Shown here: positions 6,404 to 41,734 of the stretch, piece by piece
Layout: each line of letters starts with the position of its first letter
Numbering within the stretch: the stretch's first letter is position 1
Assembly (NCBI GenBank): GCA_049583715.1
Contig: JBAUWJ010000152.1
Location: 30-64,029, forward strand
Length of the DNA stretch: 64,000 bases
Direction: 5' to 3'
Origin: Arenicellales bacterium
Lineage (GTDB): Bacteria; Pseudomonadota; Gammaproteobacteria; Arenicellales; JAANXG01
Position numbers and translations under genes: made by a program
Notes under the pieces: generated by a model
What the model saw: the letters and a program-made list of their open reading frames with translations, nothing else
What the model was told of the DNA's origin: nothing
Database searches by the model: none

Positions 6404-6433
6404 CTAAAGTACGAGTCGCCGAATTTAGTAATT

Positions 6434-16829: not shown

Positions 16830-16938
16830 CATGAACCAGGGAAGGGTCTTCGTCGGTACGCGGTAAATACATCCCTGTAGGCTCCGCTGCCGCTATCCCT
16901 GCGGCAGAGGCCCGACGAAAACCCTTCCCCGGTCCATG
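16830..16938. repeat. Repeat family A copy A1 (about 107-nt CATG-bounded hairpin element)
   Basis: CATGAACCAGGGAAGGGTCTTCGTCGG...CCCGACGAAAACCCTTCCCCGGTCCATG. The arms are complementary and the central core is ATCCCTGTAGGCTCC. Confidence 0.8.
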
Positions 16939-17076
16939 CTTCACGGAGGTGCGGACCTCCCTGGCTACGTCGCTCCTCGGCGTCGACGGAGCTTGCGCGA
17001 AGGGTCCCCTCCCCTGCTGGACGAGTTCGAGGAGGGTGGGGATAGGACGACGCCTGGAGGCCGAACCGAAAGCATG

Positions 17077-17427
17077 GTGACCCCAAACACCGCCCCCTCA
17101 CCCCAGCCCTCTGCCGAAAGGTCCCAAGGGAGAGGGAGCAACGTCCCCTCTCCCGCTGGCGCGAGAGGGTCAGGGTAAGGGTGGTTCCAAACACCGCCCC
17201 CTCGCCCCAGCCCTCTCGCGGTGGAAGAGGGAGCGATGTTCCCTCTCCCGCTGGCGGGACGACTCCAGGGACGGAGGAGGTAGAGCGAAGCACGGAGCCG
17301 GAGCCGAGAGGGTTAGGGTGAGGGTGGTTTCGAACACTGCCCCCTCGCTCCAGAGAGGGAGCAACGTCCTCCCCCGCGCTGGCGCAGGCACAGCGAAGCC
17401 TGAAGCTAGACTCGAGAGGGTCAGGGA
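17077..17427. repeat. Repeat family B: three imperfect tandem copies of a G/C-tract hairpin unit
   Basis: Sub-motifs recur near 17077, 17181 and 17323: GGTGGTTCCAAACACCGCCCCCTCGCCCCAGCCCTCT, AGAGGGAGCNANGTTCCCTCTCCCGCTGGCG and CGAGAGGGTCAGGGTAAGGGTGG. Neighbouring motifs are mutually complementary. Confidence 0.7.
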
Positions 17428-17555
17428 AGCTCTGATTTATCGTCTGAGTTGTCATTGCGAGCGCAGCGAAGCAATCCAGCATGCCTGCCATTCCACGCTT
17501 TCAGGATTGCTTCGTCGCGTCGCTCCTCGCAATGACAGCATTGATCAGAGCTTCC
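17425..17555. repeat. Repeat family C copy C1 (about 130-nt palindromic element)
   Basis: GGAAGCTCTGAT...GTCATTGCGAGCGCAGCGAAGCAATCC...GGATTGCTTCGTCGCGTCGCTCCTCGCAATGAC...ATTGATCAGAGCTTCC; long terminal inverted repeats. Confidence 0.8.
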
Positions 17556-17591
17556 TTAGGGGGATGAGGGCGGGTCCACAAGCACCGCCTC

Positions 17592-18611
17592 TCACCCCAT
17601 CGTCAAGGATGCCCGCTTCACCGACTTGCGAGCCGCCTCCAGGGCCCGTGGAGCCAGAGGCCTGTGGTCGACGTAAAGAGACCATATCTTGTCCTCCATG
17701 TCGTCCAGCGCCCATGTGTCCCGTCCTTCACTCATGAGCTTGTCCACCGCGGGAAGCTCGTGGCACACGATCAGGAGGTCACAGCTCGCGTCGAGGGCTC
17801 TTTGGCAGCGCTCCGGCAGCGGCTCGGCACCGGCGCCGGCCATGCTGAGGTCGTCGCTGAACACGGCGCCCTGAAATCCCAGCTCGTCCTTCAAGACGTT
17901 GCGTATCCAGAACGAGGAATAGCTCGGGATCTGCGGGCTGATCTTCGGATAGACGACGTGGGCGAGCATCACGCCTCCCAACTGACCGGCGAGTGAGGCG
18001 TAGGGTACGAGGTCGCAGGCGCGCAGGTCGTCCAGGGAACGCTGGTCCTCGGGAAGCTCGGTGTGGGAGTCGGCACCGATTCCGCCGTGGCCGGGGAAGT
18101 GCTTACCGACCGCGGCCATGCCGGCCTCGTTCATACCGCTGATGTACCCCGACGCAAGGGCATGTACCCCTTCGGGGTCGGAATGGAACGCCCGGTCGCC
18201 GATCACCTCGCTGTCACAGCTCAGGACGTCCAATACGGGAGCGAAGGAGAGGTCCACGCCGCAGTCGATCAGCTCACCGGCCATGACCAGGCCGATATCA
18301 CGGGCCAGCCGCCCGCCTTCGGCGGGGTTCGACTCGTAAAGCCGGCCACAGGCCGCGGCGGGCGGCAGGCGGGTGAATCCATCCCGGAAGCGCTGGACGC
18401 GGCCGCCTTCCTGGTCCACGGTCACCAGCAATGGAGGGGACCGCAGCCCCTTGATCTCCCGCACCAGCGAGCGGAGCTGGCTCTTGTGCTGGAAGTTGTG
18501 GCTGAAGAGGATGACCCCGCCTGCCAGGGGATGCCGCAGGCGTTTTCTGTCGTCCTCACTGAGAGACAGGCCGCCGGCCAGGTCGATGATGAGGGGTCCC
18601 AGGCTTGCCAC
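17592..18611 (-). CDS. nagZ: Beta-N-acetylhexosaminidase (peptidoglycan recycling)
   Basis: GH3 N-terminal domain: VTVDQEGGRVQRF and KHFPGHGG. Confidence 0.9.
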   Translation of the reverse strand: MASLGPLIIDLAGGLSLSEDDRKRLRHPLAGGVILFSHNFQHKSQLRSLVREIKGLRSPPLLVTVDQEGGRVQRFRDGFTRLPPAAACGRLYESNPAEGGRLARDIGLVMAGELIDCGVDLSFAPVLDVLSCDSEVIGDRAFHSDPEGVHALASGYISGMNEAGMAAVGKHFPGHGGIGADSHTELPEDQRSLDDLRACDLVPYASLAGQLGGVMLAHVVYPKISPQIPSYSSFWIRNVLKDELGFQGAVFSDDLSMAGAGAEPLPERCQRALDASCDLLIVCHELPAVDKLMSEGRDTWALDDMEDKIWSLYVDHRPLAPRALEAARKSVKRASLTMG

Positions 18612-18620
18612 GGCCGGCTC

Positions 18621-19100
18621 CTACTCCCGGATGGCGACGGGGGTGCCCGCCGGCACCCGGTCGAACAATTCCAGTATGTCGCGATTGCGCATCTTGATAC
18701 AGCCGTGGGACCCGGGCACGCCCATGGGGTCCTCGTCCGGCGCGCCGTGGATGTAGATGTAGCGGCGCATGGTGTCCACGCCGCCCAGGCGGTTGAACCC
18801 GGGCTCCAGGCCGCTCAGCCACAGGATTCGGGTGAGTATCCAATCGCGCTCGGGAAACCGGCGACGCAGCTCCGGGCTGTAGATCTCGCCGGTGGGTCGC
18901 CGGCCCCGGAAGACGGTGTTCACCGGACAGCCGGCACCGATCCGGGCGCGGATCCGGTGGGCGCCGCGTGGGGTACATTCGCTGCCGTCGCGCTCCCCGG
19001 GACCGTTGCGGGCGGTTGAGACCTCGTAGGTTTCGAGCACCTCCCCCCGTTCGTCCAGGAGCTGCATCCGCTGCCGCGACAAGGAGACGTCGAGCCTCAT
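18621..19100 (-). CDS. L,D-transpeptidase (YkuD) family protein
   Basis: YIHGAPDEDPMGVPGSHGCIKMRNRDILELF, the catalytic SHGC[IV][KR]M motif. Confidence 0.85.
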   Translation of the reverse strand: MRLDVSLSRQRMQLLDERGEVLETYEVSTARNGPGERDGSECTPRGAHRIRARIGAGCPVNTVFRGRRPTGEIYSPELRRRFPERDWILTRILWLSGLEPGFNRLGGVDTMRRYIYIHGAPDEDPMGVPGSHGCIKMRNRDILELFDRVPAGTPVAIRE

Positions 19101-19103
19101 GCT

Positions 19104-19589
19104 CTACAGCGAGTGGGCTCGCCGAAGCTCGTGCAGCAGGCCTTCGCACGCGTCCTCGATCATATCCAGGACCCGCTCGAAGCCGTTGGGGCCGCCGTAG
19201 TACGGATCGGGAACCTCGGTCTCGTCGAAGCCTGCCGAATACTCCATCAGCAGGCGGATCTTGTCATGCGGTCCGCCATTGATGAGGATCAGGTTCTGAA
19301 GGTTCTCCCGGTCCATAGCCAGCACGTAATCGTACGCGGCGATGTCCTCCGGGCCAGCCCGCCGGCCGCGCATCCAGGACAGATCCATACCACGCCGCCA
19401 CGCCGCCTCCTGGGCACGCTGGTCCGGCGGCGAGCCGATGTGGTAGGCGTGGGTCCCCGCCGAATCCACCTCCACCGCCGATTCCAGGTTCTCGCGCGCC
19501 AGGAGTCGGCGGAATACGCCCTCCGCCGTCGGAGATCGGCAGATATTGCCGAGACAGACGAACAAAACCTTGACCATGTGCTGGCTCAC
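19104..19589 (-). CDS. Low-molecular-weight protein-tyrosine phosphatase
   Basis: VLFVCLGNICRSPTAEGVF (CX5R P-loop) and the DPYYG motif. Confidence 0.9.
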   Translation of the reverse strand: MSQHMVKVLFVCLGNICRSPTAEGVFRRLLARENLESAVEVDSAGTHAYHIGSPPDQRAQEAAWRRGMDLSWMRGRRAGPEDIAAYDYVLAMDRENLQNLILINGGPHDKIRLLMEYSAGFDETEVPDPYYGGPNGFERVLDMIEDACEGLLHELRRAHSL

Positions 19590-20323
19590 CCCGTCTCCAC
19601 TTCGTGACGGAACCGCTCGAGGTCGCCGGGTGTATCTATGCCCGGCGGAACCGTGAGCGGCGTAATGTGGACGGCGATCCGGTCACCGTATTCGAGCGCC
19701 CGTAGCTGCTCCAGGCACTCCGTTCTCTCGAGCACCGTGGGCGGCCTGCTGGTGAACTGCCGGAGGTAAGCGTAACGGTACGCGTAGATCCCGAGGTGAC
19801 GATACACTGCGGCGTCCCCGGGAACCTGCCTCGGGTAGGGAATCCGGGAGCGGGAGAAATACAGGGCATCGCCGTTGCGGGCGCACACCACCTTCACGAC
19901 GTTGGGATTGTCCATGTCGGCCTCCTCGCGCAGGACGTGAGCTGCGGTGGCGATGCTCGCACCGGATGACTCCGCCAACGCCCGTGCCACGTCCGCGACC
20001 AGCTCGCCGGGCATGTGAGGCTCGTCGCCCTGAAGGTTGACGATCACGGTGCTCGGATCGAGCGCCAGAAGCGCAGCGGCTTCGCAGATGCGGTCCGTCC
20101 CGGAAGCGTGCCGGGGGCTGGTCATGCAGGCCTCGGCGCCAAACGATTCCGCCTTTGCCGCCACCCGTTCGTCGTCGGTGGCGATCACCACCCGCCGCGC
20201 GCCGCTGCGGCAGGCCGCCTCGTAGACCCACTGGATGAGGGGACGACCCGCGGCCTCGGCGAGAGGCTTGCCCGGCAGCCGGGTGGAATCGAACCGGGCC
20301 GGAATGAACACACTGAATTCCAT
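19586..20323 (-). CDS. kdsB: 3-deoxy-manno-octulosonate cytidylyltransferase
   Basis: IPARFDSTRLPGKPL...VNLQGDEP. Confidence 0.92.
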   Translation of the reverse strand: MEFSVFIPARFDSTRLPGKPLAEAAGRPLIQWVYEAACRSGARRVVIATDDERVAAKAESFGAEACMTSPRHASGTDRICEAAALLALDPSTVIVNLQGDEPHMPGELVADVARALAESSGASIATAAHVLREEADMDNPNVVKVVCARNGDALYFSRSRIPYPRQVPGDAAVYRHLGIYAYRYAYLRQFTSRPPTVLERTECLEQLRALEYGDRIAVHITPLTVPPGIDTPGDLERFRHEVETG

Positions 20324-20340
20324 CCAGGTGCGATGGCGGC

Positions 20341-20535
20341 CTATTTCCTCAGCCGCTGGACTTCTTCGTCCGTCAAGGGACGGGCCTCGTCCTCGAGCAT
20401 GATCGGGATGCCGTCCCGTATGGGATAGGCGAGACGGGCCGACTTGCTGATCAGCTCCTGGTGCTCCTTGTCGTAGATCAATGGGCCCTTGGTGACGGGG
20501 CAGACCAGAATGTCCAGCAGTTTCTTGTCGATCAT
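20341..20535 (-). CDS. Trm112/YcaR-family small protein
   Basis: [54 protein letters not shown]. The internal M at 20535 is the likely start, giving an ATGA overlap with lpxK. Confidence 0.85.
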
Positions 20536-21530
20536 GGTTTCAGCAGCTCGATCAGCTTGTCGTCGAATCCGGTATCCACATGGGTGGAAGTCGCCGCATA
20601 CCAGGCATCCTCCAGCTTCATATCCCGGCATTTTACCGCATCCTTCTCCGTCATCACGATGGGAGCGCCGTCGAGGCCGGAGAAGTCTTCCCGCCGGTAG
20701 CGGTGATGGTCCGGGAAGGGATGGGCTTGAACGTTCAGCCCCAGCCCGCGGAGCGCGTCGAAAAACCCATCGGGATTACCCGTTCCCGCCACCGCGTGCA
20801 CCCGCCGGCCCTCGAAATCGCCGGCCGGCCGCCGGCCGCCTCCGCCCAGATGAATGAATCCCTCGATACGAATCTCCATTCGATAAGCGCCCGGCTTCGT
20901 CCCTTCACGATCCGCCACACCGCCGTATACGACCAGGTCGACTTCCTTCAAACGGCTGCGAGGCTCGCGCAGCGGACCCGCCGGCAGGCAAAAGCCGTTC
21001 CCGAAGGGTGCGGCTCCGCCGACGACGGCGATCTCGACCTGCCGGTCCATCCGATAGTGCTGCAGGCCGTCGTCCGATACGACGATGTCGCAGCCGAGCG
21101 CCGAGATGAGCTCGTTTACCCCGCGTGGCCGGTTGGGGTCCACGACCACTGGAATGTCGAGGTTCGCCGCCATCATCGCCGGCTCGTCACCGCACTCCGA
21201 CGGCGGCGTATTCCGGTCGACGATCAGCGGCAGCCACCGCGGTCTGCCGCCGTAGCCCCGGCTGACGATGCCCGGCCTGCGGTCCCGCGCGGCGAGCAGC
21301 CGCACCACGTGCATCACCAGCGGGGTCTTGCCGCTTCCGCCGACGGTGATGCCGCCGACGACCACCACCGGTTTCGCAAAAGTGACAGCCCGGCACGGAC
21401 CGTGCGCGTAGCACATCCGCCGCAGGCGGATGATCGAGAGATAGACCCAGCTCAGCGGGACCAGCAGCCGGGTGGCGGGGCTGCGACCGCGCCACAGGTT
21501 CGACGCCGCGAGTCGAAACGGCCGGGCCAT
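20532..21530 (-). CDS. lpxK: Tetraacyldisaccharide 4'-kinase
   Basis: [19 protein letters not shown]-loop; position between msbA and kdsB. Confidence 0.92.
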
Positions 21531-21534
21531 GGCG

Positions 21535-23304
21535 TCACACCGCGATGCGATGTTCTTCCATCTGCTGGGTCCGATACAGGCGCGTGTACAGGCCGCCCCC
21601 TTCGATGAGATCCCGGTGACGCCCCTCCTCCACCACCCTGCCCTCGCTCAGTACGAAGATTCGGTCGGCGTTCTCGACCGTGAACAGCCGGTGGGCGATG
21701 ATGATGGTGGTGCGGTTGCGCGTCAGGTTCTCGGTAGCGTCGTGCACCAGCCGCTCTGACACTGAATCCAGGGATGACGTGGCCTCGTCCAGGATGAGAA
21801 TGGGCGCATCCTTGTACAGGGCCCGTGCGATCGCCACGCGCTGGCGCTGGCCGCCCGACAGCCGTGCTCCCCGCTCCCCTACCGGGGTGTCCAGGCCCTT
21901 GGGCATGCGCTCCAGGAATTCGGAGACGTGGGCCGCGTGTACGACCTCGTCCAGCCGGTCGTCCGACTGCGCGGGAGAGCCGTAAAGGATGTTCGATCGA
22001 ATGGTGCCCTCGAAGAGCATGGTCTCCTGGGTGACGAAGGCAAACTGCCTGCGCAGGCTCGCCAGGGTCAGCTCCCGGGTGTCGTGGCCGTCGAGACGCA
22101 CCACGCCCGACGAGGGCTGGTAAAAGCCCAGCAACAGTGAAACCAGGGTGGACTTGCCGCTGCCCGACAACCCCACCAGCGCCACCCGCTCCCCGGGGCG
22201 AATATGGATGTCGATATCCTTCACGGCCGGGAAGCGCGTCTTCTCGTAGGCGAATGTCACGTGATCCAGGTTCACCTCGCCCCGGGCGCGATCCACCTCG
22301 ACCGTCCCCTCGTCCAGCTCCGGCTCTTCGTCCATGACGCCGAACATGCTCTTGGCGGCGGCGACGCCCATCTGGATCTTTTCATTGACCTTGGCCAGCC
22401 GCTTCAGGGGCGCCGTCAGCATCATCACGGCCGTGACGTAGCTGACGAAGGTACCGGCGGTGACCGAATCGATGCCGCTGCGGTTGACCGAGATGGTGAT
22501 GACCAGGGCCAGTGCCGCCCCCATCACCACCACCACCATCGGCACCATGGCGGCGGCGACTGCTGCCTTGCGCATGGACTGGCGGCGGTTGTACTGGTTC
22601 GCCCGCTCGAAGGACGTCCTCTCCTGCTGCTGGGCGCCGAAGGTCTTGACCACCTGGTGACCATTGACCGTCTCCTTGGCGATCCTCGCGATGCCGGTCA
22701 TGGAATCCTGGATGGATTCGCTGCTCTTTCGAAAGCGCCGCGCCGCCTTGCCGATACCCAGAGCCGTGAACGGAGCGAACACCAGGAAGACCAGGGTCAA
22801 CAGCCAGTCCAGGTACAACATCCAGCCGATCAGCGCCACCGAGGTCAGGAAATCCTTCACCGCCAGGGTCAGCGCATCCGTGGTGGCGGTGGCGGACTGC
22901 TCGACGTCGTAGATCAGTTTGGACACCAGGCCGGATGAGGAATGCCTGTCGTAGAAGTGAGAGGGGAGCTCGAGCATGCGGTCGAAGACCGCCTTGCGAA
23001 GGTCGAATACCACCTGCCTGCCCACCCAGGCCATGGTGTAGTCCGCCACGAATCCGGCCGCGGCGCGCATGAGCACCACCGCCATGATGAGCCAGGGAAT
23101 CCAGGCGATGAAGGTCTTGTCCGGCTTCACGAAGCCGCTGTCCATGATGGGCTTGAACAGCGCGGCGAACCCGGTCTCCGACAGCGCCGTCAGCGCCATG
23201 GCGATCACCGACACCGTAAACACACCCTTGTAGGGACGGATACGAGCCAGCAGGCGCCGATACAACACGCCGCCGTCGCTGTAGGCTTGGCTCTTACGAG
23301 TCAC
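21535..23304 (-). CDS. msbA: Lipid A export ABC transporter (permease/ATPase)
   Basis: 589 aa with a 6-TM domain plus NBD: [26 protein letters not shown]. Confidence 0.92.
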   Translation of the reverse strand: MTRKSQAYSDGGVLYRRLLARIRPYKGVFTVSVIAMALTALSETGFAALFKPIMDSGFVKPDKTFIAWIPWLIMAVVLMRAAAGFVADYTMAWVGRQVVFDLRKAVFDRMLELPSHFYDRHSSSGLVSKLIYDVEQSATATTDALTLAVKDFLTSVALIGWMLYLDWLLTLVFLVFAPFTALGIGKAARRFRKSSESIQDSMTGIARIAKETVNGHQVVKTFGAQQQERTSFERANQYNRRQSMRKAAVAAAMVPMVVVVMGAALALVITISVNRSGIDSVTAGTFVSYVTAVMMLTAPLKRLAKVNEKIQMGVAAAKSMFGVMDEEPELDEGTVEVDRARGEVNLDHVTFAYEKTRFPAVKDIDIHIRPGERVALVGLSGSGKSTLVSLLLGFYQPSSGVVRLDGHDTRELTLASLRRQFAFVTQETMLFEGTIRSNILYGSPAQSDDRLDEVVHAAHVSEFLERMPKGLDTPVGERGARLSGGQRQRVAIARALYKDAPILILDEATSSLDSVSERLVHDATENLTRNRTTIIIAHRLFTVENADRIFVLSEGRVVEEGRHRDLIEGGGLYTRLYRTQQMEEHRIAV

Positions 23305-23759
23305 TTTGGCAGATCTTCGTCCGATATCTTCTGTGTCGCGAAAGTGATGTTCGTGTAGCCCAGGCGACGGGCGATGTCCATGGCGCGTATGACGGATTCA
23401 TGGGGCGTCTTGCGGTCCGCACGGATCACGGCCACCAGGTCCGTACGGTTGCCGCTCGCGGCCGCCAGCGCCCGATAAAGCGTCTTGCGGTCGGTGCCCA
23501 GCAGCTCCTTCGCGGAGGCGTCACCGGGACCCTTGACGGCGTAGACGCCCCCGGCGGTGATGTCTATCTCCAGGGTCTGGTTCTGCTTGTGCTCCACGGG
23601 CCGGTCAGTGGACTGCGGCAGTCGAATACGCAGCTCCGACTCCTTGGAAAACGTGGTGGATACCATGAAGAAGATCAGCAGCAGGAACACCACGTCGATC
23701 AGCGGCGCGAGATTGATCTCCACGTCGTCGCTCTGCTTGTCGCGGTCGGAAAACTTCAT
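23301..23759 (-). CDS. exbD: ExbD/TolR-family biopolymer transport protein
   Basis: INLAPLIDVVFLLLIFFMV signature. Confidence 0.88.
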   Translation of the reverse strand: MKFSDRDKQSDDVEINLAPLIDVVFLLLIFFMVSTTFSKESELRIRLPQSTDRPVEHKQNQTLEIDITAGGVYAVKGPGDASAKELLGTDRKTLYRALAAASGNRTDLVAVIRADRKTPHESVIRAMDIARRLGYTNITFATQKISDEDLPK

Positions 23760-23774
23760 CGTCGCCGCCCTCCG

Positions 23775-24464
23775 TCAGTTCTTGATGTTGAGCGCGGCAG
23801 CGGGGCTCGCTGCCCGGTCGCCGTGAATGATCTCCACCAGGCGCAGCGCCTCCTGCTCCAGGCTGACCGTCAGCTCGTTCACCTTGCCCCGGAAGTAGCG
23901 GTAGAACATCAGGGCCGGAATGCCCACCGTCAGGCCCGCCGCCGTGGTGATCAGCGCCTGGGAGATGCCATCGGCGAGCACGGTCGGATCACCCACGCCG
24001 TAGGTGGTAATGGCCGCGAATACCTTGATCATGCCGATGACGGTGCCGAGCAGCCCCAGCAGGGGTGTGATCGCGGCGATGGTGCCCAGGGAGTTCAGGA
24101 AACGCTCGAGCTCGTGGACGACGTGTCGTCCCGCCTCCTCGATGGCGTCTTTCATCACATAACGCCCGCTGCCGAGGTTTTCCAGCCCGGCGGCGAGTAT
24201 CCGACCCAGCGGAGAGTTCTCTCGAATCGCCTGGATACGCGCGGGATTCAGATCCCGGCGCTCAATGAGCTGCTGCACTTCCGCGGTCAGGTCGGAAGGC
24301 GTGACAGCGCGGCGGTTCAAGGTCCAGAACCGTTCGCATACGATGGCTACGGCGATTATGGAGCAGGCCAGGATCGGCCACATCAACAAGCCGCCGGATC
24401 GGAAAAGCTCGAGCACCTTGAATATGTTCCTGGGTGTGGGAATCTGGGCGGCAAAGTGTATCAA
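23775..24464 (-). CDS. exbB: MotA/TolQ/ExbB proton-channel protein
   Basis: The C-terminal motif TAAGLTVGIPALMFY is typical of ExbB/TolQ. Confidence 0.88.
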   Translation of the reverse strand: MIHFAAQIPTPRNIFKVLELFRSGGLLMWPILACSIIAVAIVCERFWTLNRRAVTPSDLTAEVQQLIERRDLNPARIQAIRENSPLGRILAAGLENLGSGRYVMKDAIEEAGRHVVHELERFLNSLGTIAAITPLLGLLGTVIGMIKVFAAITTYGVGDPTVLADGISQALITTAAGLTVGIPALMFYRYFRGKVNELTVSLEQEALRLVEIIHGDRAASPAAALNIKN

Positions 24465-24488
24465 ATTGCGCCCGTTGTATGCGCAGGT

Positions 24489-26825: not shown

Positions 26826-26976
26826 AATTTCGTTCCATCGAAGGCGGGGCCCGGCCCGAATCGTCCCCTGGTGGGGATCGATGCGTCCGGTCCGAGGCGA
26901 GATCCTCCGCGTGTTGCGTCCGGCAAACCGGGTCGCGCGAGACGCTCTGCCGGTTCGGCGTTTAAGTTATCAATCT

Positions 26977-27492: not shown

Positions 27493-27660
27493 TGGGTCGT
27501 GCCGCCGGCTCCGCGTCGTTCCGGTCCGAAATCCTGGGGGAGACCGTTGAGGTAAGAGCCGTCAAGCAACAATCGAACGACTGCGCCGATCCATCCACCT
27601 TCCCGCCTTGCCGGAGCGGCCCCACGACGATCACCGTCGGACTTTCGTTGCTCGTGTGCC

Positions 27661-28401: not shown

Positions 28402-28406
28402 GGGAA

Positions 28407-28733
28407 TTGGGGTCCCAGCTCTGGGTCTCCGATCACTACACCGCTTCGGACTGTGTCGAGCGCATGGCGGCGATCTCGGGCCTGCCGGAGAGGACCTTCA
28501 AACGCCGCTTCAGAAAGGCAACGGGGTTCACGCCGATCGAGTACGTCCAAACGCTGCGAATCGAGGAAGCAAAACAGATCCTGGAAACGACCGACGAGGC
28601 CATCGACATCATCGTCGACGCCGTCGGCTACGACGACCCCGCCTCCTTTCGCAGACTGTTCAAGCGTCTCGCGGGTGTGACCCCCGGCAGGTACCGGCAA
28701 CGCTACCAGCACCTCAGACGACTCGTGAAGTAG
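28407..28733 (+). pseudogene. AraC/XylS-family HTH domain only (GlxA-like C-terminus), probably a truncated remnant
   Basis: ERMAAISGLPERTFKRRFRKATGFTPIEYVQTLRIEEAKQILETTDEAIDIIVDAVGYDDPASFRRLFKRLAGVTPGRYR is a complete double-HTH. No sensor domain is present. The ORF starts 5 nt from the divergent methyltransferase start. Confidence 0.55.
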
Positions 28734-28740
28734 CACACCC

Positions 28741-28772
28741 GCGGTGTTTGTCGGAATGAATTCCGACCCACA
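28741..28772. repeat. Repeat family D copy 1 (REP-like, GGAATGAATTCC palindrome)
   Basis: GCGGTGTTTGTCGGAATGAATTCCGACCCACA, flanked by direct GTAGCACACCCGCGG at 28731-28745 and 28774-28788. Confidence 0.75.
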
Positions 28773-28840
28773 AGTAGCACACCCGCGGTCGCACGGCGCG
28801 CTGCCCAAGGTCGCAGGTCCCGATAGCGGCGCGGCATCAG

Positions 28841-28872
28841 GCGGTGTTTGTCGGAATGAATTCCGACCCACA
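28841..28872. repeat. Repeat family D copy 2
   Basis: An identical 32-mer exactly 100 bp downstream of copy 1. Confidence 0.75.
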
Positions 28873-28951
28873 GGGGGAAGTGCCGGAGATCTCCGGGAGC
28901 GACATTCCTGCCGACCCACGGGTGTGGTGGATCGGGAAATGGGACAGCAGG

Positions 28952-29644
28952 CTATTCGGGCTGCAAGGGCCCGAGGAAGCCGTCCTTGAGCTCCAGGACG
29001 CGGTCCATACGGCCGGCCAGATCACGGTCGTGCGTAACGACCACCAGGCTGGTGCCGAGCTCTCGGTTCAGCCCCACCATCAGGGAATAGACCTTTTCGG
29101 CGGTCTTTCTGTCCAGGTTTCCGGTCGGCTCGTCCGCGAGGATGCACGCGGGCCGGGTCACCAGGGCCCGGGCCACCGCCGCACGCTGGCGTTCGCCGCC
29201 GGAGAGCTCCCCGGGCTTGTGCTGCAGCCGCTGGCCGAGGCCCACTTCCTCCAGGCAGGCCCGGGCGCGTTCGACGCAGGTGCCGCGCGCCTCGCCCCGC
29301 ACCAGCAGAGGCATCATCACGTTCTCGAGGGCCGTGAATTCCGGCAGCAGATGGTGGAACTGGTACACGAAGCCGAGATAGCGATTGCGCATGTCTCCCC
29401 GTTCGGAGTCGGACAACGCAAAGAAGTCCGTGCCCTCGATCTGAACGCTGCCGCCGGTAGGTATATCCAGACCGCCGAGCAAGTGCAGCAGCGTGCTCTT
29501 GCCGGATCCGGAAGCACCCACTATGGCGAGCTGCTCTCCGGCGAACACCTCGAGGTCGAGCCCCATCAGAACGTCGACGTTGAGACCGCCCTGGTCGAAG
29601 CGCTTGACCAGGCCCCGGCACGCCAGCACGACTTTCCCGCTCAT
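28952..29644 (-). CDS. lolD: Lipoprotein-releasing system ATP-binding protein
   Basis: [19 protein letters not shown] and [10 protein letters not shown], immediately downstream of the Lol permease gene. Confidence 0.9.
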
Positions 29645-30879
29645 TCGTATCTCAATGCCTCCGCCGGCTGGGTCCTGGAGGCGCGGAAGGCAGGATAGAG
29701 CGTCGCGACGGCGCTCATGCCGAGGGAAGACAGCGTCACGACCAGCACGTCCCGCCAGTGCATGTCAGCAGGGAAATCACTGATGACGTAGACGTCCGCC
29801 GGAAAGAACTGCACATGGAAGATGTGCTCGAGGAACGGGACGATGGTCTGGATATTGAGGGACGTGATCACCCCGGTGAGCCCCCCCAACAGCGTGCCGA
29901 TCACCCCGATGAGCATGCCCTGTACGATGAAGATCCCCATCACGCCGCTCGGCCGCATGCCCAGCGTCCTCAGGATGGCAATGTCCGCCTGCTTGTCGGT
30001 GACCACCATCACCAGGGTGGAGACGATGTTGAATGCCGCCACCGCCACGATGAGGAACAGGATGATGAACATGACGCGCTTCTCGATTCCGAGAGCACGA
30101 AAGAAATTGCGGTGGTCACGGGTCCAGTCGCTGATGTAGAAGCCCGGTCCGAGGGAATTGGCCAGGCCGTTGCGGACCAGCGGGGCCTTGAAGATGTCGT
30201 GCAGCTTCAGGCGCAGCCCGGTCACCTCGTTGCCGGACTCGTACAGCTTCTCCGCGTCGCCGAGATCGATCAGCACCAGGCCGCTGTCGTAGTCGTACAT
30301 CCCGATCTTGAAGATGCCGCTGACCGTGAACCGCCGCAGCCGCGGCAGCATACCGGCCGGCGTCACCTGGCCTTCCGGAACGACGATGGTCACCTTGGAC
30401 CCGACGTCCAGCCCCAGGGTGCGCGCCAGCACGCTGCCCACGACCACTTTGAACTTGCCGGGCTCGAGGGAATCGAGGCTGCCCTCCTCCATATGCTTGC
30501 CGATATCGGAAACGTTCGGCTCCTGGCTGGGCATGATCCCTCGCACGATGGCACCCGTGGCATTGCCTCCCTTGGTGAGCATTCCTTGTCCGAGCACATA
30601 AGGGGCCACTCCGGCGACCTCGGGAATCTTCTTCACGGCATCCTCGAGATGCTGCCAGCCCTGAAGGCCGCCCTGATCGGCCGTAATGGTGACGTGGGCC
30701 GCGACGCCCAGGATGCGGTCGCGGAGCTCGCCCTCGAAGCCGTTCATGATGGACAGGACGGTGATGAGCGCCCACACGCCGAGGGTGATCCCCATCATCG
30801 CGATCAGTGTGATGAACGAGATGAAGTGATTGCGGCGCTTGGCGCGTGTGTAGCGCAGGCCGATGAAGACGGGAAGCAC
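29641..30879 (-). CDS. Lipoprotein-releasing system permease (LolC/LolE/LolF family); only one permease gene is present
   Basis: 412 aa with MacB-like FtsX topology. [23 protein letters not shown] is a typical Lol permease N-terminus. Confidence 0.88.
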
Positions 30880-30905
30880 GGGGCAGCGAGCTCGATCGAC
30901 CGGGG

Positions 30906-32399
30906 CTAGGAGACGCCCGTCTCCGGACGCATGTGCGGGAACAGCAGGACATCGCGGATCGAAGCACAGTCCGCCAGCAGCATCACCAGGCGATCGATAC
31001 CGATACCTTCGCCCGCGGTAGGCGGAAGACCGAACTCCAGGGCGCGGATGTAGTCGTGGTCGAAGTGCATGGCCTCCTCGTCCCCGGCCTGCTTCTCGGC
31101 CACCTGCCGGTGGAAGCGGCGGGCCTGGTCTTCCGAATCGTTCAGCTCCGAGAAACCGTTGGCGATCTCCCGCCCCGCGATGAACAGCTCGAAACGATCC
31201 GTCACCGACGGATCGTTGTCATTGATGCGCGACAGGGGGGATACCTCCACCGGGAAAAGGGTCACGAATGTCGGTTGAATCAGCTTGTCCTCGACGGTCT
31301 GGTCGAATATCTCCATCAGCCACTTCCCTTCGCCCCAGTGCTCCCTGGGCTCGATCCCGAGCGAACGGCCGTACTCGGACAATCGTTGACGATCGGCAAT
31401 GTCGGCGGGGGTCAGCTCGTCATTGCGCTCGAGAACGGCGTCCTTGACGCTGAGTCGCTTGAAGGGCGCCTCGAAGCTGATCCCCTGCCCCTGGTAGTCG
31501 AACGACTCGCTGCCGAGCACCTCGTTCGCCAGCTCCCGGAACAGGGTCTCCGTGAGATCCATGAGATCCGTGTAGTCCGCGTAGGCCTGGTAGAACTCCA
31601 GCATGGTGAACTCGGGATTGTGCTGGGTGCTCACCCCCTCGTTCCGGAAGTTGCGGTTGATCTCGAAAACGCGGTCGAAGCCCCCCACCACCAGCCTCTT
31701 CAGGAAGAGCTCCGGTGCGACCCGCAGGTACAGGTCCATGCCCAGTGCGTTGTGATGGGTCACGAACGGCCGGGCCACGGCGCCGCCCGGTATCGCCTGC
31801 ATCATCGGGGTCTCCACTTCGAGAAAATCCCGTGCCGCGAAGAACTGCCGGATGACCTGGATGATCCTGGCCCGGATCCGGAAGACGCGCTGTGCCTCGG
31901 GATTCATGATCAGGTCCACGTAGCGCTGGCGGTAGCGGAGCTCGTGGTCGCTGAGTCCATGGAACTTCTCCGGGAGCGGGCGAAGGGACTTGGTGAGCAG
32001 ACGGATGTCATCCGCCCGCACGCTGAGCTCGCCGGTCCGGGTGCGAAACAGCTCGCCTCGCACCCCGACGATGTCACCGATGTCCCACTTCTTGAACTGC
32101 TCGTTGTACCGACCTTCGGGAAGGCTGTCGCGCTGCACGAAGATCTGAATCCGCCCGCTGCGGTCCTGAATGTGCGCGAACGATGCCTTGCCCATGATCC
32201 GGCGGCTCATCATCCGTCCCGCAATGCTGACCGGAATCGCCGACTGGGCAAGCTTTTCGGCGTCCCAATCGCCGTACTCCGCCGCGATCTCCGACGCCAG
32301 GTGAGTCGGCCTGAAGTCGTTGGGAAACGCGAACCCGCCCTGCCGCAGCGCTTCCAGCTTCTCGCGACGCTGCCTGATTTGCTCGTTGTCGTCGTTCAT
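30906..32399 (-). CDS. lysS: Lysine--tRNA ligase (class II)
   Basis: 497 aa. OB-fold N-domain and class II motifs ([15 protein letters not shown]-type [10 protein letters not shown]). Confidence 0.95.
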
Positions 32400-32507
32400 T
32401 TTCCGATGTTTGACTCATGGGTCGCGGACCGCCGGTAACGGTCCGCCGCCAAGGGGTGTCCATCTCCCACTCGCGGACTAGACACGATCCTTGCCTGATC
32501 GGTCCCG

Positions 32508-33603
32508 CTACAGCCCGGCCTTCAGACTCGCCTCGATGAACGGGTCCAGGCTGCCGTCCAGCACGCCCTGGGTGTCCCCGACCTCGACGGAGGTCCTGAG
32601 GTCCTTGATGCGGGACTGGTCCAGCACGTAGGAACGGATCTGCTGCCCCCAACCGATGTCGGCCTTGCTGTCTTCCACGGCCTGCTGCTCCGCCCGCCGC
32701 TTCTGCATCTCGGCCTCGTAGAGCCGGGCCTTGAGCATCTGCATGGCCGTCGCCTTGTTGCGATGCTGCGAACGGTCGTTCTGGCACTGGACCACGATAC
32801 CCGTGGGCAGGTGCGTGATGCGCACCGCGGAGTCGGTACGGTTGACATGCTGACCGCCCGCCCCGCTCGCCCGGTAAGTATCGATCCGCAGGTCCACGGG
32901 ATTGATCTCCACTTCCACCTTGTCGTCGATCTCGGGGTAGACATAGACGGAAGCGAAAGAGGTATGCCGCCGGTGTCCGGAATCGAAGGGCGACTTACGC
33001 ACTAATCTGTGAATCCCCGTCTCCGTCCGCAGGTAACCGAAGGCATACTCCCCGGAGACCTTGATGGTCGCGCTCTTGATCCCCGCCACCTCGCCCTCGG
33101 AGATCTCGACCACCTCGCTCTCGAACTCCTTGTACTCGCAATAGCGAAGGTACATGCGCAGCAGCATCTCCGCCCAGTCCTGCGCTTCGGTACCGCCGGA
33201 GCCGGCCTGGATGTCCACGAACGCATTGTTGGCGTCCATGGGGCCGGCAAACATCCGCTGGAATTCCAGCTCCGCCAGCTTCGCGTCGAGACCGCTCAGG
33301 TCGGATTCCACCGAGCCGAGCAGCTCCGGATCGGCCTCATCATGGGCCAGCTCGATCAGCTCTGCCGCCTCGGCGATCGCGCGATGAATCTGCTCCAGGT
33401 TGCCCACCACCCGAGCCAACCGCGAGCGGCTCTGACCCAGCTCCTGGGCCCGCTCCGGATTATCCCATATACCGGGCTGCTCCAACTGCCGGTCTATCTC
33501 CTCGAGCGCCTCCTTCTTGCTGTCGAAGTCAAAGATACCTCCTGAGAGCGGCTTCCCGCCCCTTCAGTTCCTTCACGGCTTCAACCAGGGACGTAAATTC
33601 CAT
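32508..33603 (-). CDS. prfB: Peptide chain release factor 2, requiring a programmed +1 frameshift
   Basis: Frame 0: ATG 33603 [24 protein letters not shown] then TGA at 33531-33529. Frame +1 continues [29 protein letters not shown]... through SPF and GGQ (SGAGGQHVN). Confidence 0.95.
33528..33543 (-). promoter_or_regulatory. prfB +1 frameshift site
   Basis: AGGAGG TAT CTT TGA C: a Shine-Dalgarno-like element 3 nt upstream of the slippery CUU-UGA-C, the same architecture as in E. coli prfB. Confidence 0.9.
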
Positions 33604-33739
33604 CGCGATCAATCTCAACTGTGGATTTCAAGGAGCGCGAGCATACCGGAATATCACCGCCGCGCGAAAGTTGCTTGGCGCACCAAGGCGCCCCCGGCTT
33701 TCGTTTCGCCGGTATCGTATCCCGCAAGAAGCCTGTAGG

Positions 33740-33845
33740 CATGGCTTGCGGAAGGTCTTCGGGGGACCTATGCCGCAGGGTGCGGCATCGGAGCCTACAT
33801 GGACGTATCTACGGCGTGCCCCCGAAGACCCTCCCCAGGCCCATG
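33740..33845. repeat. Repeat family A copy A2 (inverted orientation, more diverged)
   Basis: CATGGCTTGCGGAAGGTCTTCGGGGG...CCCCCGAAGACCCTCCCCAGGCCCATG, with core GGAGCCTACATGGACGTAT. Confidence 0.7.
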
Positions 33846-33901
33846 CACGGCACCTCACTCGGCGGCGTCGTGTCGTGCCGATCCTAAACGAAGGTGCCCA
33901 G

Positions 33902-34008
33902 CATGAACCGGGGAAGGGTCTTGGCGGGACGCCGCAAGTACCTCCCTGTAGGCTCGCCTCCGGCATCCCTGCCTCCAGACGCCCGCCAAGACCCTTCCCC
34001 GCTTCATG
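33902..34008. repeat. Repeat family A copy A3
   Basis: CATGAACCGGGGAAGGGTCTTGGCGGG...CCCGCCAAGACCCTTCCCCGCTTCATG, with core CCCTGTAGGCTCGCCTCCGGCATCCCTGCCTCCAGACG. Confidence 0.8.
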
Positions 34009-34310
34009 CCCTGACGCCCCTTCCTCCGGCCTGATCCAGGAGACCTGTCAAGGTCCCCGTCGTGCAGATCCTGCTTTCCCTTGCGCAGTATCAAGACGGA
34101 GCCGGTTGGAGTCTGCTAAAGAAGATGATTCCAAAAGATACCAAGGTACCTGCACATCCGGATTCCATCCTGACAAGTGGTACACTTCCGGCCAGGTGAA
34201 TAAGAACACGTCGCAGCAGTGGGGTTCGGTCCTCTCGGCATTCCCATCGATTCGTGCGCACCGGGACCACGGCCCTGCTGCCGGCAGGACTTCCTGAGAG
34301 AAACGTAGAC

Positions 34311-35867
34311 ATGCGAATCGGCATACCCCGAGAGACCTATCCCGGCGAAAAGCGGGTCGCCACCACTCCCGCGGTTGTCCCCGAGCTTTTGAAGCTGGGC
34401 TACGAGGTCGTCGTTGAGCAAGGCGCCGGCGCCGGCGCGAGCTTCCACGACGACGACTACCGCCGCGCGGGCGCAACGGTGGAGGCGGATACCCGCAAGC
34501 TGTGGAGCGAATCCGACATCATCCTCAAGGTCAACAAGCCCGACCGTCACCCGGACCTGGACGTCGACGAGACCGAGCTGCTCTCCCCCGGAAGTCTCCT
34601 CGTCTGCTTCGTCTGGCCGGCCCAGAATGAAGACCTGATGAAGCGGCTGGCCGCGCGGGGCGTGACGGTCTGCGCCATGGACTCGGTGCCGCGGGTCTCC
34701 CGGGCGCAGAAGCTGGACGCCCTCTCGTCCATGGCCAACGTCGCCGGCTATCGCGCCGTGATCGAGGCCGCCCACCACTTCGGCCGGTTCTTCACCGGCC
34801 AGGTCACCGCCGCCGGCAAGGTCCCGCCGGCCAAGGTCCTGGTCATCGGCGCCGGCGTCGCGGGCCTGTCCGCCATCGGAGCCGCCGGGTCCCTGGGCGC
34901 CATCGTCCGCGCCTTCGACACCCGCCCGGAGGTCAAGGAGCAGGTGGAGAGCATGGATGCCGAATTCCTCGAGGTCGACCTGAAGGAGGAAGGCTCGGGC
35001 ACCGGGGGATACGCCAAGGAAATGAGCGAGGAGTTCATCAAGGCCGAGATGGCGCTGTTCCAGCAGCAGGCCGAGGAGGTGGATATCATCATCACCACCG
35101 CCTTGATCCCCGGGAAGCCGGCGCCGAAGCTGATCACGGCGCCCATGGTGGAGAGCATGAAGGCCGGCAGCGTCATTGTCGACCTGGCCGCCGAGCAGGG
35201 AGGCAACTGCGAGCTCACCGAGCCCGGCGAGGCCGTCGTCAAGCACGGCGTGACCATCATCGGCTACACCGACCTCGCCAGCCGGCTTGCCGCCCAGTCC
35301 AGCCAGCTCTATGCCACCAACCTGCGGCAGCTCCTGGTCGAGCTCACGCCGGAGAAGGACGGACGGCCGGTCGTCGACATGGAGGACGAGGTCATCCGGG
35401 GCCTCACCGTGATCAAGGATGGGAACATCACCTGGCCACCCCCGGCACCGAAGATCAGCGCGGCCCCTCCGGGTCCGGCGAAACCGGCGCACGAGGCGCT
35501 TCCGGCCGAAGCCGCCAGGCGGCGCCGGCCCTGGGTGTCGCTACTGCTGCTGGCCGTGGGAGCGCTGGTGATACTGGGGATGGGTTCGTCGGCCCCACCC
35601 GACTTCATGAACCACTTTACCGTCTTCATCCTGGCGATCTTCGTCGGCTACCAGGTGGTCTGGGCGGTCACGCCCGCCCTGCACACTCCCCTGATGAGCG
35701 TCACCAACGCCATCAGCGGGATCATCATCCTCGGCGCATTGCTTCAGATCGGCTCCCCCGCCCATCTCGTCGCGGTCCTTGCGGGGATCGCCGTGCTGAT
35801 CGCCTCCATCAACGTCGTGGGCGGGTTCCTGGTCACCCAGAGAATGCTCAGGATGTTTCGGAGATAG
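34311..35867 (+). CDS. pntA: NAD(P) transhydrogenase subunit alpha (full-length, with TM tail)
   Basis: [23 protein letters not shown]..., [12 protein letters not shown]-terminal TM helices. Start at ATG 34311. Confidence 0.93.
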
Positions 35868-35876
35868 GGCTGGCAC

Positions 35877-37265
35877 ATGGGACACGGCATCATTACAGCG
35901 GCGTACATACTCGCAGCCATACTGTTCATATTCAGCCTGGGCGGCCTGAGCAACCAGGAGACCGCGCGCAGGGGCAACCTCTACGGTATTGTCGGCATGG
36001 CAATCGCCATCGCCGCCACCATAGCCGGCGACCGGGTTCACGACTACGGCCTGGTCGTCACTTTGATGGTGCTGGGGGCCGCCGCCGGCACCTTCGTGGC
36101 GATGAAGGTGCAGATGACCCAGATGCCGCAGCTCGTGGCCATGATGCACAGCTTCGTCGGACTCGCGGCGGTACTCATCGGCTTCGGCAACTATGCCGAT
36201 CCGAGCCTGCATTTCACCGGCGCGGAAAGGACCATCCACGACGTGGAGATTTATGTCGGCGTCCTGATCGGCGCTGTCACCTTCACGGGATCGGTAGTGG
36301 CTTTCGGGAAGCTCCAGGAGCTGCTGCCCTCGGCTCCCCTGCTCCTGCCCGCCCGACACGTCCTGAACCTGGTCGCCGCGTTGGTCTGCGTGTATCTGGG
36401 CTACCTGTTTCTCGGCGCCCCGGACGCCGCGCAGGGTGCGATTCCGTTGATTATCATGACGATGATCGCGCTGCTGTTCGGCATCCACATGGTCATGGCG
36501 ATTGGCGGCGCGGACATGCCGGTGGTGATCTCCATGCTGAACAGCTACTCGGGTTGGGCCGCCGCCGCGGCGGGCTTCATGCTCTCCAACGATCTCCTGA
36601 TCGTCACGGGAGCGCTGGTGGGGTCCAGCGGCGCTATTCTGAGCTACATCATGTGCCGCGCCATGAACCGCAACTTCGTGCGCGTGATCCTGGGGGGATT
36701 CGGGGGCGGCACCGCAGCTTCCGGTGCCGCTGCCGCCGGCGAGGTCCAATCCACCACGGCGGAGGAAGTGGCCGCTCTCCTGGAAGACGCATCCGAGGTC
36801 GTGATTACGCCGGGATACGGCATGGCCGTCGCGCACGCCCAGCATGCCGTCTCGGACATCACTAGCCTGCTGCGTAGCAAGGGCGTGCAGGTACGCTTCG
36901 GGATTCATCCCGTGGCCGGGCGCATGCCGGGCCACATGAACGTGCTGCTGGCCGAAGCCAAGGTGCCCTACGATATCGTGCTGGAGATGGACGAGATCAA
37001 CGACGACTTCGAGCACACCGACGTGGTGCTGGTGATCGGCGCCAACGACACCGTGAATCCCGCGGCCGAAGAAGAACCGGACAGCCCCATCGCCGGCATG
37101 CCCATCCTCGAGGTGTACAAGGCCAGAAACGTCATCGTCCTCAAGCGCTCAATGGCCTCCGGCTACGCGGGAGTCGACAATCCGCTGTTCTACCGCGAGA
37201 ACACCCGAATGCTCTTCGGCGACGCCCGGGCCAGCGTGGAAGCGATTCTGGCGGCCTTGAAGTAG
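35877..37265 (+). CDS. pntB: NAD(P) transhydrogenase subunit beta
   Basis: 462 aa. N-terminal TM domain and C-terminal NADP(H)-binding dIII ([11 protein letters not shown]..., [10 protein letters not shown]). Confidence 0.95.
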
Positions 37266-37348
37266 GGTCGTCACCAAGCCGAAGTTTTTCGGCTCGATGC
37301 CCTCGCTGCATGGTCAGGATGTGCGGGTGATTGGCGAAAGTGCCCTGG

Positions 37349-37455
37349 CATGAAGCGGGGAGGGGTTTCGGCGGGACGCCGCGAGTACGTCCTTGTAGGC
37401 TCGCCTCCGGCGTCCCTGCCTCCAGACGCCCGCCGAAACCCCTCCCCGCTTCATG
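37349..37455. repeat. Repeat family A copy A4
   Basis: The arms CATGAAGCGGGGAGGGGTTTCGGCGGG / CCCGCCGAAACCCCTCCCCGCTTCATG are perfectly complementary over 27 nt. Confidence 0.8.
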
Positions 37456-37691
37456 CTCTTGCGCCCATCCCTTCGATAGGCGCTGGCACCTGTGAGACGA
37501 ATTCGTTCAGCTATCGGACATCGGCGAGACGTGGCGAGCACCTTCCCTGTAGAAGTCCATCTCCGGGGTTCTGTGCCTGCCCTTGGACGCCGGTTGAAAC
37601 GCGTTCCCCTATTCCAAGCGTCGGTCCCCTCGATTGAAGGCAGCGTCCGCAGGCGGGATTGACTACCCGGCGAAGGGGGCCGCCGTGTAGG

Positions 37692-37798
37692 CATGGTTTG
37701 GGGGAGGCTTTCGCCGACCGTCTGGAGGCAGGGATGCCGGAAGCGAGCGTACAGGGAAGTATTCACAGCGTGTCGGCGAAAGCCTCCCCCAAACCATG
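37692..37798. repeat. Repeat family A copy A5 (inverted orientation)
   Basis: The arms CATGGTTTGGGGGAGGCTTTCGCCGAC / GTCGGCGAAAGCCTCCCCCAAACCATG are perfectly complementary over 27 nt. The core matches A3/A4 in reverse complement. Confidence 0.8.
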
Positions 37799-38804: not shown

Positions 38805-38805
38805 A

Positions 38806-41569: not shown

Positions 41570-41672
41570 CCTGAGCCTCGCCCCTGCGGGGCCGCGCTGA
41601 AGCGCGTCCAATTTCGCTCCCGGCGAAATTGTCGAACCCGAGTGGGTTCGTCCACGCGCCCGCTCAACCAAG
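41570..41672. repeat. Repeat family E copy E1 (103 nt)
   Basis: It differs from 41735-41837 at a single position (41641 A vs 41806 G). Internal hairpins include CAATTTCGC-ccggg-GCGAAATTG and GCCCC-tgc-GGGGC. Confidence 0.85.
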
Positions 41673-41724: not shown

Positions 41725-41734
41725 CTCGGCTCTT

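Follow-up and report, generated by a model that had tools for sequence, protein, structure and literature searches.

Hairpin repeats with covarying arms in an Arenicellales genome: a probable distant branch of the YPAL/RU-2 family with a putative dual CsrA site

A total of five hairpin units of 106 to 109 nt (A1 to A5) were analysed in a 64,000-nucleotide stretch of DNA from an Arenicellales bacterium (assembly GCA_049583715.1, contig JBAUWJ010000152.1, positions 30 to 64,029), hereafter the window, and were found to be copies of a dispersed, non-coding, mobile hairpin repeat. Judged by the likeness of its centre to published sequences, this family very probably corresponds to YPAL/RU-2, of which it would be a new and distant member and not a new kind of element. 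The explanation that we favour, if only by a little, is that of a YPAL/RU-2 mobile hairpin in which the pairing of the stem is selected and whose centre holds a putative dual binding site for CsrA.

When a structure (covariance) model was run with its filters off over positions 16000-39000 of the window, exactly five full-length units were returned, each of them at precisely the place and in the orientation that a previous sequence-only reading of this DNA had given. They scored 92-111 bits on that strand against 26-44 bits on the opposite one, and this gap implies that ~60 bits of the score are owed to the asymmetric centre, on top of what the hairpin itself contributes. Each unit comprises an outer stem of at least 27 bp and arbitrary sequence, a conserved single-stranded segment, ACGC(C/T)GTRAATAC-N-TCC-N-TGTA(G/C)GCTC, a short inner hairpin with a variable stem and a conserved loop, and the return strand of the outer stem. 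With a mean minimum free energy of -61 to -66 kcal/mol and a GC content of 0.6-0.7, the units form a long, stable stem-loop and are not AT-rich. Their arms had been described as complementary within each copy and perfectly so in A4 and A5, and 28 of 28 positions do pair in each of these two, followed by A3 with 96%. The description of the elements as 107-nt hairpins bounded by CATG needed amending, as CATG marks the ends in this genus only, other genera showing GCTG..CAGC, TGCG..CGCA and others, and the repeated unit is wider than the hairpin. In particular, conservation within the genus takes in ~10 nt of the left flank (..AGTGCCC.G) and 20-30 nt of the right one (CC...CGCC..TCCCTTCG), and A3 and A4 together with their flanks form a 128-nt direct repeat (33901-34028 and 37348-37475) of 87% identity.

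The arms of these units had been said to covary between copies, and this observation is correct and stronger than first stated. Within the genome, 28 pairs were predicted by RNAalifold, and 22 of them had at least one copy in which both partners were changed and the pair was kept. Between genera, 47 diverse copies from three genera were tested against an author-specified structure, in which 87.5% of the cells formed a standard pair compared to 64.2% in the shuffled alignments (none of 500 shuffles reached the observed value). Moreover, double changes appeared in 33 of the 36 pairs (shuffle mean of 26.8), and only 35-47% of the cells were paired once the 3′ partner was slid by 1-3 columns. The 27-bp arms of the different genera have no common sequence, yet they are complementary, and such unrelated complementary arms were found class-wide; the covariation stands well above the shuffled and the slid controls. 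The better conservation of the centre was borne out as well, the termini being the most variable part of the unit and the interior the most conserved one. The further claim that change is compensatory, unlike in a classical miniature inverted-repeat transposable element (MITE) with conserved ends, is supported both by this covariation and by compensated changes in the orthologous A4/A5 doublet described below.

The covariation is a pattern observed directly, and the mechanism behind it is what we infer: the sequence of the stem would be free and the pairing of a folded single strand would be selected, with substitutions becoming fixed as compensated pairs by way of G.U intermediates, which form on the complement of the strand that the sequence-only reading had aligned. 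Regarding this strand, the outer stem of 112 unique copies had 91.8% of Watson-Crick pairs and 8% of mismatches, and the mismatches on the aligned strand comprised 121 A.C versus 28 G.T and 85 pyrimidine-pyrimidine versus 14 purine-purine oppositions. The excess of A.C on the aligned strand amounts to G.U wobbles when the reverse strand is read, and as RNA this reverse strand folded more stably in 111 of the 131 copies (mean difference of 5.2 kcal/mol), although these mismatch and energy statistics count related copies as independent and are trends, not independent tests. Structural selection probably acts on the reverse strand. Extra evidence on the strand was also sought in a junction helix (CGUC/GGCG) that has a conserved G.U, and it was dropped because subtype II breaks this helix.

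The orthologous intergenic regions of sister species were compared, as the sequence-only reading had proposed, and the presence of the units was found to differ for both A2/A3 and A4/A5. The A2/A3 pair is missing from the orthologous prfB-pntA spacer of the three sister species (G001, G002 and G003), while the A4/A5 doublet is orthologous at the same pntB-sucD position in G001, with none in G003. The two units of this doublet differ from their G001 orthologues by 12% and 10%, compared to 43% at the fourfold-degenerate sites of pntB and sucD, that is, they evolve ~4 times more slowly than these positions in the two neighbouring genes. The surrounding intergenic DNA is unalignable with that of G001. 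Four compensated double changes, including a G:C to C:G swap, were found in the arms (alignment read by eye), along with four single changes, all of them leading to G.U on the reverse strand; one G001 arm had a 1-nt insertion and two G.G mismatches. In the centre, almost all the differences fell on positions that are variable family-wide, mainly the loop N, with the exception of an A/G difference in the inner stem of unit 2. Constraint therefore acts on copies in place and not just on new ones, which argues for purifying selection or persistent conversion on resident copies and sits badly with the view that the copies are just young or selfish. The spacer between A4 and A5 is 236 nt long, compared to ~82 nt in the orthologous doublet of G001. 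Separately, a stretch at 37540-37610 between both units (..ACCTTCCCTGTAGAAGTCCATCTCCGGGG..GGACGCCGG..) resembles a decayed unit centre, and the structure model is blind to it. The flanks of the units showed no obvious direct repeats, and the sister species are too diverged for a base-by-base alignment of empty sites.

Repeats of Yersinia named YPAL were reportedly described by De Gregorio et al. in 2006 (J Bacteriol 188:7876). The 168-nt RU-2 (YPAL) sequence of Y. pestis printed by Delihas in 2007 (PMC2759123) contains, between complementary arms, CGTC-CGCGCC-AAGGAT-GGCGCGG-CTCGAGCCTAC-ATGGAT-GTATTTACGGCGT, which is the reverse strand of the centre of the window unit. A second covariance model, R2, was built from the three-genus alignment, and it matched a Yersinia similis copy, close by eye to the Y. 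pestis RU-2, with 70.8 bits and an E-value of 1.8e-13. Furthermore, the alignment of Yersinia and window copies kept ACGC.G...TAC.TCC.TGTA.GCTC invariant. The literature presents YPAL as a mobile intergenic repeat that occurs in Yersinia and Erwinia and carries inverted repeats internally; its targets span or adjoin dyad symmetry, with target duplications of 3-26 bp, and it is co-transcribed with upstream genes, which it may stabilise (Delihas 2008, PMC2229807).

The distribution of the family was determined with the covariance models, exact patterns and BLAST. Every one of the five genomes of the genus carried the element, and the near-complete ones had dozens of copies. In a second genus each genome held 8-32 copies, in a third the element was sparse, and the 21 genomes that represented other families of the order gave no match to the covariance model. 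In a sample of the class, R2 gave full-length 106-nt matches of ~100 bits in 85 out of 400 genomes and 76 out of 321 genera, and in a phylum-wide sample of 300 genomes there were 10 positives, all of the same class. The class-wide copies had wholly different arms, with the 27-bp arm geometry and the 106-nt length remaining constant, around the centre (G)ACACGC(C/T)GTRAATAC-N-TCC-N-TGTA(G/C)GCTCG, followed by a variable stem, the CATCCCTG loop, the returning stem and ACGGTC. The exact core pattern was found in named genera such as Stenotrophomonas, Marinobacter, Shewanella, Idiomarina, Lysobacter, Methylotuvimicrobium and Yersinia, among others, and BLAST located the element on plasmids of Yersinia, Pantoea, Klebsiella, Citrobacter and a few E. 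coli. In three inspected plasmids (E. coli, Yersinia and Pantoea), the copy lay between convergent genes with no associated transposase. As for narrower patterns, an exact-pattern scan with the core of the main subfamily had no match outside this genome, and the exact pattern of subtype I matched G001 only.

On the reverse strand, the first small hairpin of the centre (Pa) reads UAC-A-N-GGA-N-GUA, where the information content is 0.1-0.2 bits at the two N positions and ~2 bits at those next to them, and the TCC and TG columns that represent Pa on the aligned strand were invariant or nearly so in unbiased MAFFT alignments. The loop of the inner hairpin holds GGA in 121 of the 131 unique copies, either as A[NGGA]U or as C[AGGA]G, so that it reads (C)ANGGAN(G), and the two GGA motifs are 22-24 nt apart in most copies. 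The consensus obtained for CsrA by SELEX is RUACARGGAUGU, in which ACA, GGA and GU are conserved, with six-base loops and short stems, and one CsrA dimer can bridge two sites 10-63 nt apart (PMC7652899). One of the two small hairpins, UACANGGANGUA, fits this consensus, and csrA is present in the genome. From this match of motifs, the centre is tentatively predicted to be a double CsrA docking site on the reverse strand. If transcribed, the reverse strand would present this putative dual CsrA/RsmA site on a rigid stem, and the site could stabilise or regulate the transcripts that carry it, or else titrate CsrA. More speculatively, YPAL-type elements might be mobile carriers of a ready-made dual CsrA/RsmA module, rewiring or buffering the Csr/Rsm network across Gammaproteobacteria either as stabilisers and regulators in 3′ untranslated regions or as a dispersed sponge. 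In the searchable literature, as far as it was accessible, neither the class-wide 106-nt geometry with a free covarying stem round an invariant centre nor the evidence of constraint on resident copies and the dual CsrA-site match of the centre appears to have been described.

Several points weigh against this explanation, besides the dependence among copies already mentioned for the strand statistics. In the tandem gene contexts of this genome, the aligned strand was the sense one in 9 of 13 copies and the GGA strand in only 4 of 13, and with respect to the nearest upstream gene in relatives, the aligned strand was sense in 24 cases versus 13 for the GGA strand (hand count). Moreover, each of the convergent transcripts running into a face-to-face doublet would reach a unit in the non-GGA form before one in the GGA form. 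This result on orientation stays unexplained, and so does the strict pairing of two subtypes in the doublets. CsrA was found in 348 of the 400 class genomes (87%) and in 79 of the 85 element-bearing ones (the latter from a cross-check by hand), and it is so widespread that its co-occurrence with the element is uninformative; one near-complete genome, G313, had the element and no CsrA match. Furthermore, the stem of the inner hairpin was without diversity in 20 copies of the main subfamily, compared to 12-15% in the arms, which is unexpected if pairing alone matters there, and this invariance remains unexplained. Finally, gene conversion from active copies could mimic constraint in place.

Among the alternatives, it is conceivable, though rather unlikely, that the unit is a single-stranded DNA transposition substrate of an HUH/Y1 enzyme (RAYT- or IS200-like), with GTAG plus the hairpin and the loops as recognition site. 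The long stem would then need to fold only in single-stranded DNA, hence its covariation, and the CsrA-like loops would be coincidental. Such a substrate would agree with the GTAG before the inner hairpin and the CGTC after it on the other strand, as in tagged REP families (PMC3733652), with inverted doublets resembling REPINs (27 face-to-face pairs in G001, with a period of ~188 nt), with a presence that varies between species, with the lack of an orientation bias towards gene sense and with the invariant inner stem within a subfamily; single-stranded DNA hairpins also tolerate G.T, so the asymmetry of the mismatches fits. However, it is another REP (GGGGTCTGACCCC / AAATGGGGGAC) that flanks the RAYT-like genes of this bacterial family, and the unit is near just one of 11 RAYT loci, for which reason RAYT was rejected as the mobilising enzyme. 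RAYT genes were also seen in genomes that have no unit, none of the isolated plasmid copies that were inspected (E. coli, Yersinia and Pantoea) had such a gene nearby, and a purely selfish substrate does not predict orthologues 4 times better conserved than neutral sites over long divergence. As separate observations on these genes, a RAYT-like Y1 transposase gene lies between inverted AAATGGGGGACGGACCACGGTT-type repeats on the 3.35-kb contig C137 (locus L001), and REPs of this kind (GGGGTCTGACCCC) also lie beside the RAYT genes of a related genus and fill the spacer between prfB and pntA in G002.

Other explanations address the arms themselves. It is improbable that they are complementary through copying at the DNA level without functional selection (template switching or hairpin-templated repair in a palindrome), despite the perfect 28-bp arms of A4 and A5, the arms being more diverse than the inner stem and the copy at C190:21745, whose centre is flipped relative to its flanks and which shows that arms interact. 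Under copying, pairs should be perfect and the two strands should not differ, yet mismatches make up 8% of the pairs, with A.C exceeding G.T by 4:1, and copying leaves unexplained both the class-wide conservation of the centre at exactly the non-N positions and the fourfold slower evolution of the whole unit compared to synonymous sites. Nevertheless, it may operate alongside selection. Still less credible is that the arms are external to the mobile unit, the centre inserting into existing host palindromes such as terminator stems. The reported dyad-symmetric targets of YPAL, with their duplications of 3-26 bp (PMC2229807), speak for it, as do several class-level copies that remain complementary beyond 27 bp by varying amounts (e.g. 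19 more bp in L186). Against it, the arms within one genome are clearly related and differ by point changes only, the 27-bp geometry and 106-nt length are constant class-wide, orthologous copies carry arm substitutions that arose in place, and host palindromes of 27 bp are rare; short orthologous spacers suggest that empty sites lack the arms too, though they are too diverged for an exact alignment. Finally, an ordinary MITE derived from an insertion sequence (IS) with a DDE transposase, in several subfamilies with different terminal inverted repeats, is the least plausible origin. The size, terminal inverted repeats, intergenic spread and subfamily structure would fit, but conservation is lowest at the termini and highest inside, opposite to what a DDE MITE shows, the target duplications are reported to be of variable length (PMC2229807), and no parent IS or longer element with the same arms was seen, the inverted copies of contig C3 flanking ordinary-looking genes.

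The host genome is a 4.72-Mb draft of 330 contigs with 64% GC, in which iterated nhmmer searches, a check that had likewise been proposed, collected 70 loci, 51 of them full length (105-109 nt). As many contigs of the draft terminate inside copies, the real copy number is probably above 70, and for the same reason the units can be said to break assemblies. Several subfamilies coexist in the genome, defined by their centre, and the unit of the main one is embedded in a larger mosaic, 3′ of a GTGGGTCGGAATTCATTCCGAC REP. This REP is a separate family with 239 copies genome-wide, only 23 of which are followed by the hairpin unit; it consists of a GTGG tag and a perfect 8-bp hairpin, appears in the window at 28741-28772 and 28841-28872 and often forms inverted, REPIN-like doublets. 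The units of G001 are nearly always face-to-face inverted heterodimers of ACGCCG..GTAGGC and ACGCTG..GTACGC with a period of ~188 nt, of which 27 pairs were counted by hand from the listing of model matches. Apart from these, one copy of the main subfamily (C190:21745-21849) carries its hairpin unit the other way round with respect to the upstream module and the tail, both of them conserved. Moreover, contig C3 (1-260 and 3100-3400) has two divergent units with GGGTGAAGGGAGGGTCTTTCAGGGC arms, inverted and 3 kb apart, each inside a larger palindrome ending in TCAACTCATGCAATGCACTGTGGGAG, with ordinary-looking genes between them. A small protein gene on the reverse strand, with a Shine-Dalgarno-like GAAGGGAG ~12 nt before the ATG of the CATG end, was considered and rejected: no frame is kept, because the subfamilies differ by indels of 1-2 nt in the centre, and a 1-nt indel occurs even among copies of the main subfamily. 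No Rfam family was matched, as only tRNAs reached the gathering score, and at E<=10 there were only generic microRNA-hairpin models far below their thresholds.

The location of the copies in intergenic DNA was borne out, mostly facing gene 3′ ends. Using weighted-interval gene calls cross-checked with homology-supported flanks, the 43 classifiable copies of the genome comprised 26 in convergent, 13 in tandem and 4 in divergent gene contexts. In relatives, considering homology-supported genes within 300 nt, 73 gene 3′ ends faced the element, compared to 23 gene 5′ ends. The positions of the units in the window and the parts of A4 are collected in Table 1.

Table 1. Hairpin units A1 to A5 in the window and the parts of unit A4
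Feature	Position	Strand	Description and neighbourhood	Evidence
A1, 109 nt	16830-16938	+	Conserved-centre ('top') strand (ACGC.G..TAC.TCC.TGTAGGCTC) on +; 84 nt downstream of efp (16186-16746, +); faces convergent GH3 glycosyl hydrolase gene (17592-18611, -)	cmsearch 95.4 bits; Pfam for the neighbours
A2, 106 nt	33740-33845	-	Left member of back-to-back (<- ->) pair in divergent prfB/pntA spacer	cmsearch 92 bits
A3, 107 nt	33902-34008	+	Right member of A2/A3 pair, 56 nt from A2	cmsearch 105.9 bits
A4, 107 nt, subtype I (ACGCCG..GTAGGC)	37349-37455	+	Left member of face-to-face (-> <-) doublet, A4/A5, between convergent pntB (ends 37265) and sucD (37926-38870, -); orthologue G001 C21:22997-23103	cmsearch 108.1 bits
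A4 outer stem P1, 5′ strand, 27 nt	37349-37375	+		Perfect pairing with 37429-37455
A4 conserved asymmetric segment ACGCCGCGAGTACGTCCTTGTAGGCTC	37376-37402	+		Invariant alignment columns, per-position information
A4 small hairpin Pa	37386-37397		Reverse strand UAC-AAGGAC-GUA, loop A-N-GGA-N	
A4 inner hairpin P2	37403-37428	+	Loop GTCCCT 37412-37417 (reverse AGGGAC); end of segment is the GACG junction; pairs 58-67 / 76-86 covary	
A4 outer stem P1, 3′ strand	37429-37455	+		
A4 conserved 3′ tail CTCTTGCGCCCATCCCTTCG	37456-37475	+		Common to A3 (34009-34028) and G001 copies
A5, 107 nt, subtype II (ACGCTG..GTACGC)	37692-37798	-	Right member of the A4 doublet; orthologue G001 C21:23185-23292	cmsearch 111.5 bits

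Further repeats were observed in the window. An 86-nt palindromic repeat (GTCATTGCGAGCG.AGCGAAGCAATCCAG...CTGGATT.CTTCGTCGC.TCGCTCCTCGCAATGAC), which constitutes another hairpin family, appears at 17451-17536 and 59901-59986 with 86% identity, along with partial matches at 6346-6426. Downstream of A1 (17058-17387) there are three tandem-like copies of a composite repeat, GGGAGAGGGAGCAACGTCCCCTCTCCCGCTGGCG plus ..GGTGGTTCCAAACACCGCCCCCTCGCCCCAG, within which positions 17128-17249 gave a weak, hairpin-only match of the structure model. Moreover, a 109-nt direct repeat (41564-41672 and 41729-41837) with 97% identity and a spacing of 165 nt adjoins a tRNA on the reverse strand (41874-41958), whose end is overlapped by an inverted repeat (41824-41882).

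Overall, a repeat that was thought to be a curiosity of Yersinia is among the most widely conserved small mobile elements seen here, being present in about one fifth of the sampled genomes of the class and on enterobacterial plasmids. Slow evolution in place combined with compensated stems is unusual for 'junk' repeats and argues for function. CsrA is a master regulator of carbon metabolism, motility, biofilm and virulence, so if the putative sites are true, a mobile element would be distributing binding sites of a global regulator. The module would then also account mechanistically for the higher levels that have been reported of YPAL-positive transcripts in Yersinia and that are unexplained in the part of the literature that was accessible here. 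In practical terms, a covariance model of the family would remove many spurious open reading frames and flag the units in genomes and metagenome-assembled genomes.

Compared to known systems, ERIC/IRU and Correia/NEMIS are small intergenic mobile repeats of ~100-160 bp as well, but they have no sequence relationship to the units and have their own conserved terminal repeats and TA target duplications, and we know of no protein-binding loop pair in them. They are co-transcribed and form long RNA hairpins that affect the processing or the stability of mRNA (PMC2229807). The REP/BIME and REPIN-RAYT systems share with the units a GTAG tag by a short GC-rich hairpin, inverted doublets and an intergenic location with preference for gene 3′ ends; here, GT(A/G)G stands at the foot of the hairpin, as GTAGGCTC before the inner hairpin in most copies, with GTACGC in subtype II. 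Compensatory hairpin changes have also been reported in REPINs (Bertels & Rainey 2011, PMC3116915). However, the ends of REPINs are conserved and their spacer is variable, whereas the window family is the reverse, with variable ends and a conserved centre, and REPs are 20-40 nt long, as opposed to the 106-nt unit, and those flanking the RAYT genes here are different. The CGTC-1 dimers in 41-bp palindromes of Halothiobacillus neapolitanus (Di Nocera et al. [quoted passage not shown]

With the CsrA/RsmA sites of CsrB and RsmY/Z, the centre of the units has in common GGA in hexaloops of short hairpins and two sites within the bridging range of 10-63 nt. Known CsrA sponges are instead single-copy small RNA genes that contain GGA many times over and have a promoter and a terminator of their own, whereas the window family would present one predicted pair of sites on a mobile hairpin in tens of copies. 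The closest likeness is to YPAL/RU-2, whose Y. pestis unit has the same core, ..GACGCCGTAAATACATCCATGTAGGCTCG + hairpin + GACG.., inside long complementary arms, collinear with the window copies. Both are intergenic and GC-rich, with internal instead of terminal conservation, a presence that varies between related genomes and a location mostly after gene 3′ ends. Published descriptions of YPAL/RU-2, however, are limited to Yersinia and Erwinia/Pectobacterium, where the unit measures ~168 bp and its arms are uniform, while the copies described here belong to an uncultured gammaproteobacterial lineage, in which the arms are unrelated in sequence, the ends are CATG and subfamilies coexist and form inverted heterodimers.

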